IMG/VR virus record: IMGVR_UViG_3300032315_000748
Direction: 5' to 3' (one strand)
Length of the DNA: 64,000 nt
Source of the DNA: a virus
Notes under the pieces: generated by a model
What the model was told of the DNA's origin: nothing
Seen by the model: only the letters and a program-made list of their open reading frames with translations
Database searches by the model: none
Made by a program: the position numbers and the translations under genes
Shown: positions 4,460 through 22,167 of the stretch, one piece after another
How positions within the stretch are numbered: the stretch's first letter is position 1
Layout of the letters: each line of letters begins with the position of its first letter

Positions 4460-4693
4460 ATGACTGCTCCTGCTTCTTTGATTGCTCTTGCTGCTGAACT
4501 CGTGGATACGAATCCTGCTGCTTCTCAACTGATTGTGAATCTTGGCAATGCTGAAACTGGTGATGAAGTGCTTGAAGCACTGAATACCTATGATGAATCC
4601 ATTCTTGATTCTCTAGAATCTGTTGATGAAGATGAAGATGAAGATGAAACTGATGAAGTTGAAGTTGATGAAACTGAACTCGTTGCTGTCTGA
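4460..4693 (+). CDS. highly acidic protein (ends -LVAV)
   Basis: 77-aa ORF with D/E-rich tail. Confidence 0.75.
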   Translation: MTAPASLIALAAELVDTNPAASQLIVNLGNAETGDEVLEALNTYDESILDSLESVDEDEDEDETDEVEVDETELVAV

Positions 4694-4705
4694 TAAGTAA
4701 TATCA

Positions 4706-4731
4706 GGGAGAGAGAAATCTCTTCCTTTCTT
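4706..4731 (+). terminator. intrinsic terminator-like hairpin
   Basis: GGGAGAGA-GAAA-TCTCTTCC followed by TTTCTT. Confidence 0.55.
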
Positions 4732-4805
4732 GTCTCAGTAGCTCAGATGGATAGAGCATCTCACTTCTAATGAGTAGGTCGGGGGTTCAAGTCCCTCCTG
4801 AGACG
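4732..4805 (+). tRNA. tRNA-Arg (TCT)
   Basis: Acceptor GTCTCAG/CTGAGAC; D arm GCTC/GAGC; loop CTTCTAA; T arm GGGGG-TTCAAGT-CCCTC; no encoded CCA. Confidence 0.92.
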
Positions 4806-4828
4806 TTATACAAACACCCTTCAAGACA

Positions 4829-5599
4829 ATGAAACTCAAACTATTAAGTGACCTTCATCTTGAGCACTATTGTGCTGGACAATACTTTGACCCAGGAGAA
4901 GGTGATGTTTTAGTTCTTGCTGGTGATATTCTTTGTGCCAAGCACTTGAAGAAGAATGGTTATCTTGCCGAAGTGTATGAAAAGTTCCTGACTGATTGTA
5001 GTAAGAACTATCAAAAGATTCTCTATGTCAAGGGAAATCACGAAGCATATGGATACAACTACGAAGGAGCACACAAAACCATTCAAGAGCATCTTCCTGA
5101 TAACTTTCAGTTGATGGAGAATGATACAGTCAAAATTGATGATTGGAACTTCATAGGTTTCACATTTTGGACTGATTTTCGTAATGAGAATCCATTAGAA
5201 ATGATGGATGCTCAACAGTATATGAATGATTACAAAGTCATTCGCATTACTTCCAATTTTCGTAAGTTGAATACAAATGATACTCTTGGTTTTCATAAGA
5301 AGAGCAAGGAGTATCTTCTCAATCAACTTCAAGAATTAAATGAGAATGTATTCGTCATTAGTCATATGGCACCGAGTTATCAATCGGTTGCTCCTCAATT
5401 TAAGAACACAGAAAATGGTGCTTTTGTAAGTGATTTGGATGATTTGATTTTAAGTTATCCTCAAATCAAATACTGGTGCCACGGTCACACTCACAACTTC
5501 TTTGATTATAAAATTGGAGATTGTCGTGTGATTTGTAATCCTTCGGGTTATCCCGGTCAGGACACAGGATTTAATCCAAATTTGATTTTGGGCATCTAG
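4829..5599 (+). CDS. calcineurin-like metallophosphoesterase
   Basis: SDLHLE, LAGDI, GNHE, SHMAP, HGHTH motifs. Confidence 0.9.
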   Translation: MKLKLLSDLHLEHYCAGQYFDPGEGDVLVLAGDILCAKHLKKNGYLAEVYEKFLTDCSKNYQKILYVKGNHEAYGYNYEGAHKTIQEHLPDNFQLMENDTVKIDDWNFIGFTFWTDFRNENPLEMMDAQQYMNDYKVIRITSNFRKLNTNDTLGFHKKSKEYLLNQLQELNENVFVISHMAPSYQSVAPQFKNTENGAFVSDLDDLILSYPQIKYWCHGHTHNFFDYKIGDCRVICNPSGYPGQDTGFNPNLILGI

Positions 5600-5648: not shown

Positions 5649-6125
5649 ATGGATTACTTAAAGATTGAAAGTGGTTCTCAAGTTCTGCTACTTAACGCAG
5701 ACTACAACCCAATTAACATTTGCTCATATCGTAAGGCAGTTATTCTTTCACTGAAAAACAAAGTTCAGGTTCTATCCAAGAGAGTAATTAGACTGATAAA
5801 CTATGTGCGTCTTCCATTCTCACGTCTAATGAGCACAGCACCCACACGCAATCTCATTATGAAACGTGATGGATATATCTGTTCTTATTGTGGAGCAAAG
5901 GAACAATTAACGATTGACCACATTCTACCTACATCCAAAGGTGGGCAGAATACTTGGGAGAATATGACTACTTGTTGCTTGAAGTGTAATTCCAAGAAAG
6001 GGGATAAACTACTGAAAGAAACAAATATGATTCTTCATAATCCTCCAACTATTCCATTCAGCAAAATCACTTTGACCATTAAGCAATCTCGTAATCCTGA
6101 ATGGACTGAATACAATTATGCGTAA
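5649..6125 (+). CDS. HNH endonuclease (McrA-like)
   Basis: VLLLNADYNP N-terminus; RDGYICSYCG, LTIDHILPTSKGG, WENMTTCCLKCNSKKG. Confidence 0.9.
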   Translation: MDYLKIESGSQVLLLNADYNPINICSYRKAVILSLKNKVQVLSKRVIRLINYVRLPFSRLMSTAPTRNLIMKRDGYICSYCGAKEQLTIDHILPTSKGGQNTWENMTTCCLKCNSKKGDKLLKETNMILHNPPTIPFSKITLTIKQSRNPEWTEYNYA

Positions 6126-6975: not shown

Positions 6976-7476
6976 ATGAAACTTATACCAGAATATGAGG
7001 CATATAGTGTCACCGAAGACGGTGTAATTTATTCACACAAAAAACCAGGAGGAAAAGGAAAAGGCAAAATTGTTGATTATTCTTATAAAAGGCAACTAAA
7101 ACCGCAAACCAACCACAAAGGATACTTAAATGTTATTTTGGAACAAGGTAGTTCTAATGCTAGAACTATGTCTATTCACAGAGCAGTAGCATTAGCATAC
7201 ATTCCAAATCCAAATAATTATGACACCATAAATCATATTGACGAAAACAAAACAAACAATCACGTATCAAATCTTGAATGGATGAGTAATGCTGACAACG
7301 TAGCATATTCACAAGCAAAAACAAGACTAATACAAACACCAGAGGGTGATAAAATAGAAATTACTAATTTATCAAAATGGTGTCGTGAAGTTTTAGGACT
7401 AAAATCATCAGGGAATATGTTAAGGAGTTTGAGAAATCCTAATATGCCCTGTATGGGATATAAATTACTTAAATAA
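6976..7476 (+). CDS. HNH homing endonuclease (NUMOD4-type)
   Basis: IPEYEAYSVTEDG N-terminus; IHRAVALAYIPNP, INHIDENKTNNHVSNLEW; TATAAATA at 6944-6951. Confidence 0.88.
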   Translation: MKLIPEYEAYSVTEDGVIYSHKKPGGKGKGKIVDYSYKRQLKPQTNHKGYLNVILEQGSSNARTMSIHRAVALAYIPNPNNYDTINHIDENKTNNHVSNLEWMSNADNVAYSQAKTRLIQTPEGDKIEITNLSKWCREVLGLKSSGNMLRSLRNPNMPCMGYKLLK

Positions 7477-8109: not shown

Positions 8110-8736
8110 TCAAGAATAAAATAAAAAATACTTAACGTATTTTTCAGCAAACTCTTTGTTGAAATAAGATTTCAAAATACCAAAAGCAGGATCATTCGTG
8201 GACATATAATCATCAAATTTTTGATGGTGTTCTACGAATGATTCTTTTTTTGTAGTAGAATCCATTAAACATTTTTTGTATTGATGTAAGTAGCACTTTA
8301 CCATAATTTGATATTCATTATAAAAGCATTCACTACTCTTTTTTATCCACAACTTTTTTGAGAAATACTTATTAAAATCATAAAACTTGGATGTGTTTGT
8401 TTTTGAGTTTGGAAACATTTCAAGATAAGACAAATAATCTTCATTATCGCTAATTGGATGAAAGTCTATTGCTCCAAAATATTTTTTGCTTCCAATCTGT
8501 AAATACTCTGTTCCAAATATAGGAGTTTCATAATGATGATTTGGATATATGACTAAGGACTCTGCTTGAAACTTTTGTTCAACATTTAATTCACACACTC
8601 TTATACGTTTACAATAATCAGACTTAAAAAGATATGATTTTAACTTAACTGAATTATTATTAGATGTCCTTTCTACCCAAATTGGAACTTCGGTTGAAAA
8701 TAAATCTAAAAACTCTTTGAGTATATCTTTTAACAT
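8110..8736 (-). CDS. ferredoxin-dependent bilin reductase, PebA/PebS-like (auxiliary metabolic gene)
   Basis: VIYP..Y..PIFG, IDFHP, KFYD.N.YFSK, FDDYM..NDPA.G....YF..EFAE.Y...FLF; late-type ATTAAATA on minus strand at 8766-8773. Confidence 0.82.
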   Translation of the reverse strand: MLKDILKEFLDLFSTEVPIWVERTSNNNSVKLKSYLFKSDYCKRIRVCELNVEQKFQAESLVIYPNHHYETPIFGTEYLQIGSKKYFGAIDFHPISDNEDYLSYLEMFPNSKTNTSKFYDFNKYFSKKLWIKKSSECFYNEYQIMVKCYLHQYKKCLMDSTTKKESFVEHHQKFDDYMSTNDPAFGILKSYFNKEFAEKYVKYFLFYS

Positions 8737-10559: not shown

Positions 10560-10632
10560 GCTGGTGTAACTCAATTGGTAGAGTAATTCTTTTGTAAAGA
10601 ATAAGTTGCAGGATCGTGCCCTGTCACCAGCT
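10560..10632 (+). tRNA. tRNA-Thr (TGT) with atypical T-loop
   Basis: Acceptor GCTGGTG/CACCAGC; D arm ACTC/GAGT; anticodon stem ATTCT/AGAAT, loop TTTGTAA; T arm GCAGG-ATCGTGC-CCTGT. Confidence 0.85.
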
Positions 10633-10731: not shown

Positions 10732-11367
10732 ATGCCTAAACCAAATTGGTCCAATGAGGGACTACAACGTATAATTGATGCTGGCAAAAAAGGTGGTGAA
10801 ACGACAAGAAAAAAAATAGAAAAAGAAACAAAGAAAAAACAAGAAGAATATTTGCTTAATCCAAAATTATGTTATGGATGTGAAACGGTAATTCCGTATG
10901 AAAAAAGAAATACCAATAAATTTTGTTGTAGATCTTGTTCTATAAAAACAAGTAATAAAAAAAGAACCATATCAACATTAAAGAATTGTCTTCATTGTAA
11001 TAGTATTTTATCAAAATCTGCTATTAAATTTTGTTCACATACATGCCAAAGAAAGTTTGAATATTCACAAAGAATTGATATGTGGATGGAAGGAAAATTA
11101 AATCCAAAAGCAAGAAGTTTTTTTAAAAAATATCTCACAGAAACTTATGGATACAAATGTTCCTGTTGTGGGATTGATGAATGGAATGGTAAAGAATTGA
11201 TATTAGAAATAGACCATATAGATGGAATACCAGATAATAATGAACCTAAAAATTTACGATTTATATGTCCCAACTGCCATTCTCAAACTGATACTTACAA
11301 AGGAAAAAATATCGGTAATGGAAGACATTATCGCAAAGTAAGATACTCTAACGGACAAAGTTATTAA
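10732..11367 (+). CDS. HNH homing endonuclease with Zn-finger repeats
   Basis: KFCCRSC and KFCSHTC fingers; CSCCG, LEIDHIDG..DNN...NLRFICPNCHSQT. Confidence 0.9.
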   Translation: MPKPNWSNEGLQRIIDAGKKGGETTRKKIEKETKKKQEEYLLNPKLCYGCETVIPYEKRNTNKFCCRSCSIKTSNKKRTISTLKNCLHCNSILSKSAIKFCSHTCQRKFEYSQRIDMWMEGKLNPKARSFFKKYLTETYGYKCSCCGIDEWNGKELILEIDHIDGIPDNNEPKNLRFICPNCHSQTDTYKGKNIGNGRHYRKVRYSNGQSY

Positions 11368-20654: not shown

Positions 20655-20839
20655 TTACTATGCGTCTCACTTCTAACTATGGTTTCATTCATACCCCTTT
20701 ATTCTATGTTGGATGGAGTCATTGTCAGTCACAAGATGAAGAACAATTTGGTTTTTCTATTGGTAATTTGTATGTTGGAGTATATAATCATAAGTGGTTT
20801 GGTGGTATTTTGAATGAATATGGTGTATTAGATAATTAA
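20651..20839 (+). CDS. hypothetical protein
   Basis: 62-aa ORF, last of early region. Confidence 0.6.
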   Translation: MITMRLTSNYGFIHTPLFYVGWSHCQSQDEEQFGFSIGNLYVGVYNHKWFGGILNEYGVLDN

Positions 20840-20895
20840 ATTAAATGTATTAAAAAACATTATGTGTTGATTTGTTAATGATTTGTTAATTGTAT

Positions 20896-20999
20896 CTTTA
20901 TGTGTTAATGAGTTCTTTTATCTGTTAATGCTTGATTGAACCTTCTACTTTATGTGTTAATGAGTTCTTTTATCTGTTAATGCTTGATTGAACCTTCTA
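20896..20999. repeat. perfect 52-bp tandem duplication within a TGTTAAT-rich tract
   Basis: CTTTATGTGTTAATGAGTTCTTTTATCTGTTAATGCTTGATTGAACCTTCTA x2; TGTTAAT at 20873, 20884, 20903, 20923, 20955, 20975. Confidence 0.95.
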
Positions 21000-21023
21000 C
21001 TTTTTATGGGTCTAAGCCAGATA

Positions 21024-21052
21024 ATTATAACACAAACCATCTAAAAAGTCAA
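21024..21052 (-). promoter_or_regulatory. leftward sigma70 promoter
   Basis: Minus strand TTGACT (21052-21047), 17 bp, TGt-TATAAT (21029-21024). Confidence 0.8.
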
Positions 21053-21058
21053 GTATTT

Positions 21059-21117
21059 CCAGACACTTGAACAACTGGCACAAGGCATCAACATTATATT
21101 CTGGGGTGTGTTATAGT
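21059..21117 (+). promoter_or_regulatory. palindrome-promoter element copy 17 (no downstream ORF)
   Basis: CCAGACAC-TTGAACAA-CTGGCACA 21059-21082; TGt-TATAGT 21109-21117. Confidence 0.7.
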
Positions 21118-21154
21118 ATAAGGGGAACGATTCTCTATAGGGGGAACTGATAGG

Positions 21155-21317
21155 TTTTCCACAGGTTATAAGAAATAGTTTTCCACAGGCAATTTACAAA
21201 TCCCAGTGATTGTAAGGGTTTATGATTTTTACCCTGTGGAAAACTTTTATACTTTTTCCACAGGTTATCATAAAGTTGTGGAAAACTTTTATACTTTTTC
21301 CACAACCCTGTGAAAAA
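21155..21317. promoter_or_regulatory. cluster of 7 DnaA boxes (cyanobacterial-type TTTTCCACA)
   Basis: TTTTCCACA at 21155, 21179, 21254, 21296; TGTGGAAAA at 21235, 21277; TGTGAAAAA at 21309. Confidence 0.8.
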
Positions 21318-21404
21318 CTATCATAAGAACATCTAATTCGTGATATCAAACACTTCGTGTATTCCTATACTATCAGTTATTCTTATAACTTTTCGTCTTT
21401 TACA

Positions 21405-21765
21405 TACCTGGGGATATGTTTCGTGTATTAGAATAAAGCAGTACTAAATGGTTCTTAATAAGCACCACTGTTTGATACTTAACAAACAGTAAAGTATAAT
21501 CAGCATGGATTTCGTCTATTCTATTATACTTTGCAACTTCGTCAATACTATAAAGTATTAGACAGTGCTTCGTGATATATTATAGCTTACTCCTTCGTTT
21601 ATACAGTGAGGATAATGTTCTTAAATATCATATACCTGGGGATATGTTTCGTTTATTAGAATAAAGCAGTACTAAATGGACAGTTATATCGTCGTCTTCG
21701 TTATAGCGTACCTGGGGATATGTTTCGTTTATTAGAATAAAGCAGTACTAAATGGACAGTTATAT
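21405..21765. repeat. three 47-57-bp direct repeats
   Basis: TACCTGGGGATATGTTTCGT(G/T)TATTAGAATAAAGCAGTACTAAATGG at 21405, 21633, 21709. Confidence 0.95.
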
Positions 21766-22014
21766 TGGGGCGGTTTGTGTTATATTATATCCCCGATGCC
21801 CGCCCATAAGGCGTAAACCCCTAAAAGCTAATTTAAAGGGTCCCTGTAACCTACAAAACTTTGAAAACGCTCGAACATATACACGTCAATTAAAAAAAAT
21901 TCCCAGATTTTAAAATTTCCACACAGGTTCGCCCAATGAATAAAAAAATTTCCCAGAAAAAAACACTCACAAAAGGACAAAAACACTATATAAAAAGAAA
22001 CACACATTTCAAAT

Positions 22015-22167
22015 ATGAAACTGGAATTTGACGATTACGAAAAAGATCTATTACTGGAAACAATTCAGCATAGATTATACACAGATAAAATATTAGTGAT
22101 TAATAATACTCTTAGAGAAGAAATTGAAGATCTTCTCAGAAAAGTAGAAGAAGATGAATACTTATAA
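22015..22167 (+). CDS. hypothetical protein (50 aa)
   Basis: MKLEFDDYEKDLLLETIQHRL... Confidence 0.55.
   Translation: MKLEFDDYEKDLLLETIQHRLYTDKILVINNTLREEIEDLLRKVEEDEYL

Follow-up and report, generated by a model that had tools for sequence, protein, structure and literature searches.

Results

The window, i.e., the whole 64-kb stretch of viral DNA analyzed here (IMG/VR record IMGVR_UViG_3300032315_000748), originates from a T4-like cyanomyovirus. It contains PHROGs matches for terminase, sheath, portal, baseplate and scaffold genes (including gp6, gp8, gp17, gp18 and gp20), and its closest DNA matches in GenBank are Synechococcus and Prochlorococcus myoviruses with an identity of ~70%, which agrees with the T4-like phage proposed in the initial annotation. 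T4-like cyanophages are among the most abundant viruses of the ocean. The early genes of the window include three genes for HNH-type endonucleases (5649-6125, 6976-7476 and 10732-11367) and two tRNA genes (Arg-TCT at 4731 and Thr-TGT at 10560), and a gene for a ferredoxin-dependent bilin reductase lies on the minus strand at 8110-8736.

A gene-free control region of 1,175 bp (20840-22014), for which the ORF list holds no long ORF, separates a block of small genes from the baseplate/structural module and corresponds to the gap of ~1.2 kb that had been annotated initially. Its 5′ side is occupied by small hypothetical genes, whereas its 3′ side is followed by two small ORFs, a conserved gene of 251 aa (T4-GC 102, phrog_1574), gp25, gp6, the gene of a structural protein of 4,067 aa and gp8, in this order. 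Four ORFs of 51-59 aa overlap the region, and the DNA there is indel-rich among aligned relatives, with an alignment of 12 relatives exhibiting conserved blocks separated by indel-rich DNA. A blastn search with a 1.25-kb region against the GenBank phages yielded no match at an E value of 1e-5 and only short, box-level matches at an E value of 10. An Rfam search of the region found no family, neither at the gathering score nor at an E value of 1, and the GC-rich part of the region did not fold better than shuffled sequences.

Within this region, 163 bp (21155-21317) harbor six exact copies of TTTTCCACA and one copy of TTTTTCACA, in both orientations and at the positions given in the initial annotation. 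A count of the 9-mer over the window, which had been proposed as a check, showed that all of its exact copies (n = 6) are confined to 150 bp inside the array. Dinucleotide-preserving shuffles contained on average 1.8 copies per 64 kb, with none of 100 shuffles reaching six, and the Poisson estimate for at least six copies in one 163-bp window is ~1e-17. The boxes are spaced by 24, 56, 19, 23, 19 and 13 bp with alternating orientation, and the consensus of the extended site is (A/C)(G/T)TTTTCCACA(G/A)(G/C).

The seven boxes differ in their conservation among the 12 aligned, diverged relatives. Box 1 (TTTTCCACA, 21155-21163, plus strand) is exact in seven of them. Boxes 2 (AGTTTTCCACAGG, 21179-21187, plus strand), 3 (21235-21243, minus strand), 4 (21254-21262, plus strand) and 5 (21277-21285, minus strand) form an invariant core with the order + - + -, and show a pairwise identity of 1.0 compared with 0.37-0.73 for the spacers. 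The four core boxes are hence conserved more strongly than the non-coding DNA that surrounds them. Boxes 3 and 4 are the left and right arms of a first divergent pair with a spacer of 10 bp (N10), and box 5 is the left arm of a second one, whose right arm is box 6 (21296-21304, plus strand). Both pairs share the spacer CTTTTATACT and belong to a 28-nt unit present at 21235-21262 and, 42 bp further, at 21277-21304, so that the two inverted pairs with an identical 10-bp spacer noticed initially are real. Box 6 originates from this 42-bp duplication of the 28-nt pair and is exact in three of the 12 relatives. Box 7 (21309-21317, minus strand) carries the one mismatch (TTTTTCACA) and reads TTTTCCACA exactly in L105 and L021, two close relatives. 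According to the alignment, boxes 6 and 7 together represent a lineage-specific duplication.

To the left of the boxes are two divergent, near-consensus promoter sites with an extended -10 element, which the initial annotation had not connected with the array. The leftward one, P_L (21024-21052, minus strand), is of the sigma-70 type and consists of TTGACT, a 17-nt spacer, TATAAT and a TGn extended -10 element, amounting to 11 of 12 consensus matches; a homolog is present in 28 of 39 relatives. From its predicted start at ~21017 it reads into two exact, TGTTAAT-rich tandem repeats of 52 bp (20896-20999) and toward the moderately AT-rich end of the region at 20800-20850. Directly after the last upstream gene lies the sequence AAATGTATTAAAAAACAT (20843-20862), which is kept in all nine aligned relatives that reach this position and would mark the distal end of the predicted P_L transcript. 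The rightward promoter-like site, P_R (21088-21117, plus strand), consists of TCAACA, an 18-nt spacer, TATAGT and a TGn element; it has a weak -35 element and was identified by its consensus match only. Its -10 region is the inverted repeat of the -10 region of P_L. With a predicted start at ~21124, the boxes would be located in the leader of P_R, at ~+31 to +193.

On the other side of the boxes, 11 co-oriented TTCGT(N)TAT units (21337-21728, plus strand) were found, including three 57-bp repeats at 21405, 21633 and 21709. No such units occur on the opposite strand of 21337-21728, and they are absent in this form from the rest of the window. In relatives, the density of TTCGT is 9.6 per kb after the boxes versus 0.65 per kb elsewhere, a ~15-fold difference. 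These units could be iterons, strand-specific sites or a motif acting at the RNA level. Further downstream, ~100 bp before the first small ORF after the gap, a conserved non-coding block, TAACCTACAAAACTTTGAAAACG / TAACCTACAA(AACTTTGAAAACG), is located at 21840-21870 on the plus strand. The TAACCTACAA block is shared with the very different cyanomyoviruses P-SSM2, S-SSM7, Syn33, S-ShM2 and ACG-2014b, and was located at L112:4180-4200, L113:~4146, L114:~5578, L115:~6208 and L117:~5571. It has no Rfam match and no unusual fold. Relatives which lack the boxes can retain both the TTCGT arrays and the TAACCTACAA block (the latter in P-SSM2 and S-SSM7), indicating that the control region works without DnaA boxes. 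As P_L, the TTCGT arrays and the TAACCTACAA block are conserved, the boxes are an addition to a control region that is itself conserved and rich in promoters.

The initial annotation had recognized the motif as the type found in cyanobacterial oriC. Indeed, TTTTCCACA equals the published cyanobacterial DnaA box, which is bound by domain IV of DnaA in Cyanothece (PMC4674748; reviewed in PMC4009838). The divergent pair TGTGGAAAA-N10-TTTTCCACA is present in 33 of 301 genomes of the phylum and always once per genome. When spacers of 0-30 were allowed (151 genomes), 25 genomes contained a match, among which N10 (15) and N9 (5) predominate. In all five genomes in which both could be located (G056, G223, G041, G083 and G020), the pair lies inside a cluster of boxes 200-600 bp upstream of dnaN, which agrees with the position of the cyanobacterial oriC in the literature. 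The pair that the phages prefer, which occurs once per genome and within box clusters upstream of dnaN, is hence a hallmark of the cyanobacterial oriC. Phage boxes also resemble host oriC boxes in their flanking bases, with G/T preferred at -1 and a purine at +9, where C or T are almost never found. Owing to the invariant core boxes, the oriC-type N10 pair and the matching flanks, it is likely that host DnaA binds the array.

The comparison was extended to picocyanobacteria, which were picked by their DnaN start MKLVCSQ (the family of G179). Across 26 of them, the 350 bp upstream of dnaN hold one to six boxes with at most one mismatch, of which only zero to two are perfect. One picocyanobacterial genome of 1.7 Mb contains 25 perfect boxes in total, with never three of them together. 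The boxes of picocyanobacterial origins are thus mostly imperfect, so that the phage array, which comes closer to the consensus than they do, does not represent a copy of the host origin. Two groups of genomes were rejected as picocyanobacteria. Small low-GC genomes with TTTTCTACA upstream of dnaN differ in the DnaN N-terminus and in their Shine-Dalgarno sites, and a genome with 57% GC was identified as Sericytochromatia. In three of the small low-GC genomes which are non-picocyanobacterial by their DnaN N-terminus (L240, L241 and L242, from G027, G006 and G009), four to eight copies of TTTTCTACA, a DnaA-box variant with T at position 6, are located just upstream of dnaN.

The window was also searched for the other elements of a DnaA-dependent origin. 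A nearest-neighbor stability profile revealed no AT-rich unwinding element beside the boxes, where the stability corresponds to the window average. Within the region, the AT-richest DNA (20800-20850) is 300 bp away from the boxes and ranks no higher than the 94th-98.5th percentile, according to the window size. No run of at least four DnaA-trios exists within 150 bp of the boxes, no initiator or Rep-like gene was found near the array, and the window lacks a head-to-tail array of boxes with a spacing of 11 or 21-22 bp, as present in host oriC and in one relative (L346). The GC skew, which had been suggested as a check, gave no signal at the array: it is positive on both sides, follows the gene orientation and is monotonic in the whole genomes of Syn33, S-PM2 and S-ShM2, and is thus uninformative on the site of the origin. 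A classical oriC copy that is melted by DnaA is therefore not supported. What remains of the proposed mimic of a host oriC is the motif, the geometry of the N10 pair and the flanks, while the AT-rich unwinding element, the DnaA-trios and the head-to-tail array are missing.

A scan of IMG/VR with the pattern TGTGGAAAA-N6-14-TTTTCCACA yielded 111 loci, in which the spacer is exactly N10 in 89 of 128 pairs. About 47 of these loci are syntenic, with the cluster located 0.85-5 kb upstream of T4-GC 102 (phrog_1574), gp25 and gp6, and the order of box orientations recurs in them although the identity of gp6 is as low as ~54%. The orientation of the N10 spacer differs among lineages, which makes a fixed promoter inside the pair unlikely. 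Named phages carry the boxes as well, with three to four boxes at a single place in each of Syn33, S-ShM2, ACG-2014b and S-PM2, and one pair plus one extra box in Syn9. P-SSM2, S-SSM7 and P-SSM4 were searched and contain no boxes, and no alternative box type was found in P-SSM2 and S-SSM7.

For an unbiased sample, contigs were fetched via the neighboring T4-GC 102 protein, and the 41 contigs that extend at least 2.6 kb upstream were examined. Exact boxes are clustered in ten of these, and 30 have none even with one mismatch allowed. The array is hence accessory, with about three quarters of the close relatives lacking it, and the fact that ~30 of the 41 same-clade contigs as well as P-SSM2, P-SSM4 and S-SSM7 are devoid of it indicates that its function is dispensable. 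An analysis of gene co-occurrence in the flanks revealed no DNA-binding gene that accompanies the array, and none of the flanking ORFs clearly tracks the presence of boxes. An ORF of 50 aa at 22015 occurs in 8 of 10 box-bearing versus 9 of 30 box-less loci, a skew which probably reflects lineage. An AbrB-like gene beside the boxes of Syn33 was discarded as a partner of the array, with no homolog in the window or in box-bearing contigs. Repeated CCTGTAGAAT / CCTGTATAAT motifs in high-GC relatives were considered as another box type and turned out to be ordinary promoters before small genes. In these relatives (L402:3250-5060 and L362:4190-5320) the equivalent upstream region is full of small genes, each behind a promoter cassette of the form TTGAC...CCTGTAGAAT or CCTGTATAAT.

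One colinear relative, L346 (IMGVR_UViG_3300032236_001159, 4500-4930), with a T4-GC 102 protein that is 98% identical, carries five boxes at the place of the window array, all of which are TTCTCCACA. Four of them are direct repeats with spacings of 21, 11 and 11 bp, where the 11-bp spacing leaves a gap of 2 bp between the 9-mers, as in host arrays. The change falls at box position 3, which varies among natural high-affinity DnaA boxes, being A in E. coli, T in cyanobacteria and G or C in actinomycetes (PMC4285127). The TTCTCCACA boxes of L346 are the sole variant found in the phages of this comparison, and a genome scan for hosts with clusters of TTCTCCACA returned random taxa and no host lineage among the matches listed. 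Directly after its boxes, L346 contains a small inserted ORF with a GIY-YIG-like N-terminus. Among further contigs, a viral one (L470:760-1010) mixes TTATCCACA and TTCTCCACA boxes in one dense cluster, and L469:900-1005 and L525:1960-2065 each contain nine tandem 12-bp repeats of TGTGGAGAAcgt.

Discussion

Judged from the sequence of the array, early transcription or replication of the virus is probably coupled to the DnaA initiator of its host. We tentatively propose, at a confidence that comes close to an even chance without reaching it, that the array is a DnaA-responsive switch in a control region for replication and early transcription. Host DnaA would load onto the seven-box array in the untranslated leader of P_R, ~100 bp from the divergent P_L and directly upstream of the eleven TTCGT repeats. 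Once loaded, it might block, pause or stimulate RNA polymerase and so switch transcription through the control region. By analogy to oriE, oriF and oriG of T4 and to pR/ori-lambda, the transcripts of the control region could act as primers or activators of early phage replication and also drive the genes downstream. In this way, the initiation potential of the host would be read by the phage, and the titration of DnaA by amplifying phage DNA would be an unavoidable side effect. We infer three steps here, namely the binding of DnaA, an effect of this binding on transcription, and a role of the region in starting or timing replication. Precedents exist for the components of this proposal, as DnaA is an established transcription factor, also with respect to the stimulation of ori-lambda activation (PMC8203912), and origins of T4 consist of promoters combined with iterons or with elements located downstream (PMC3016281). 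A broader claim, namely that a replication start or checkpoint dependent on host DnaA exists in several genera of T4-like cyanophages, appears possible, if rather doubtful.

The main rival to such a switch is a sink or inactivator of DnaA, a decoy resembling datA, whose boxes would soak up host DnaA as the phage genomes multiply and would thereby stop host initiation as well as DnaA-dependent host transcription. The initial annotation had already named this option. We consider it unlikely, even though several observations fit it. The six perfect boxes of the phage stand against zero to two in the dnaN-proximal oriC regions of 26 picocyanobacteria, and the 25 perfect boxes of the 1.7-Mb picocyanobacterial genome nowhere form a group of three. 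The lack of an unwinding element and of a DnaA-trio run, and the arrangement of the boxes in inverted pairs instead of filament-type direct arrays, point in the same direction, and a patchy, accessory distribution would suit an optional device for host takeover. A pure sink, however, needs only number and affinity, yet diverged phages have kept the four-box core, the N10 spacing and a position flanked by the promoters and the TTCGT array. Furthermore, the laboratory phages have merely two to four boxes, which are few for titration during early infection.

It also seems rather improbable that the sites are bound by another protein of phage or host, with their identity to the DnaA box being convergent or coincidental. 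The concerted change of all five boxes to TTCTCCACA in L346, a relative that is otherwise so similar (98% identity), could be read as co-evolution with a phage-specific binder, and it would fit this idea that no host lineage with TTCTCCACA clusters was found among the matches listed. The change affects, however, precisely the one position which is known to vary among DnaA boxes (PMC4285127), and in the window the sites match the DnaA box in 9 of 9 positions and share flanks and N10 geometry with cyanobacterial oriC. In addition, no candidate gene for such a binder co-occurs with the array in its flanks.

A true DnaA-dependent theta origin, at which DnaA melts the adjacent DNA and recruits the helicase (as in oriC and P1 oriR) and the TTCGT units serve as iterons for a putative phage initiator, is very improbable, since the oriC-type N10 pair within a box cluster, the 11 direct repeats which adjoin it on one strand and are conserved among relatives, the four directly spaced boxes of L346 (21/11/11 bp) and the single theta origin predicted for Syn9 (Weigele 2007, as cited in PMC2984593) are opposed by an average duplex stability at the boxes with the most AT-rich part (94th-98.5th percentile) 300 bp away, by the missing DnaA-trio run and head-to-tail array in the window, by the lack of a GC-skew turn here and in Syn33, S-PM2 and S-ShM2, by the lack of a Rep-like gene nearby and by the absence of the boxes from most relatives.

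A literature search found no publication linking cyanophages with DnaA boxes. If T4-like cyanophages indeed possess a replication start or checkpoint that depends on host DnaA, theirs would be the first case in the T4 superfamily of a host initiator serving an origin or its control, and the phage would sense the replication and energy state of its host before committing to DNA synthesis. More generally, the array would be a new example of a lytic phage which is either wired to host replication control or disarms it. Being conserved and located in a promoter-rich, gene-free region, it offers a concrete and mutable handle on the replication start of T4-like cyanophages. Smaller versions of it are carried by the laboratory phages S-PM2, Syn9, Syn33 and S-ShM2, and natural variants are available for comparison in the box-less relatives and in the single relative in which position 3 differs in every box.

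Among known systems, the cyanobacterial oriC shares with the phage array the TTTTCCACA 9-mer, the flanks with G/T at -1 and a purine at +9, and the divergent N10 pair. It differs in that the host pair is flanked by outward boxes in direct arrays with a spacing of 11 or 21-22 bp, whereas the phage has inward boxes and a second inverted pair. Unlike oriC, the phage array is also devoid of an unwinding element, DnaA-trios and a nearby dnaN or dnaA, and most boxes in the origins of the likely hosts, the picocyanobacteria, are imperfect. Clusters of high-affinity DnaA boxes outside of oriC are likewise known from datA of E. coli, P1 oriR and pSC101, where they titrate or modulate DnaA or assist an initiator bound to neighboring direct repeats (PMC5835720, PMC4980987). 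In contrast to these, the array is carried by a lytic T4-like phage, and we identified neither an IHF site nor a Rep gene or an AT-rich region in this case.

To our knowledge, T4-like cyanophages do not have the MotA-type middle promoters of T4 origins. Further features are nonetheless shared with T4, a phage with the same type of replisome, whose oriE combines iterons with an early promoter and whose oriF and oriG combine a promoter with a downstream unwinding element and are primed by an R-loop (PMC3016281). Common to both are the gene-free region, early-type promoters that lead to no nearby gene and flanking arrays of direct repeats. T4, however, uses neither a host initiator nor DnaA boxes, no clear unwinding element is found here downstream of P_R, and the cyanophage region is, unlike the T4 origins, a putative origin on the basis of its sequence. 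Lambda, finally, differs from the cyanophage in having few weak boxes and an initiator of its own, the O protein, compared with six to seven boxes, a T4-type replisome and no known phage initiator here. With its pR/ori-lambda (PMC8203912) it nevertheless provides the parallel to the switch proposed for the array, as in both cases host DnaA would serve as the transcription factor of a promoter, and transcription from this promoter would activate replication.
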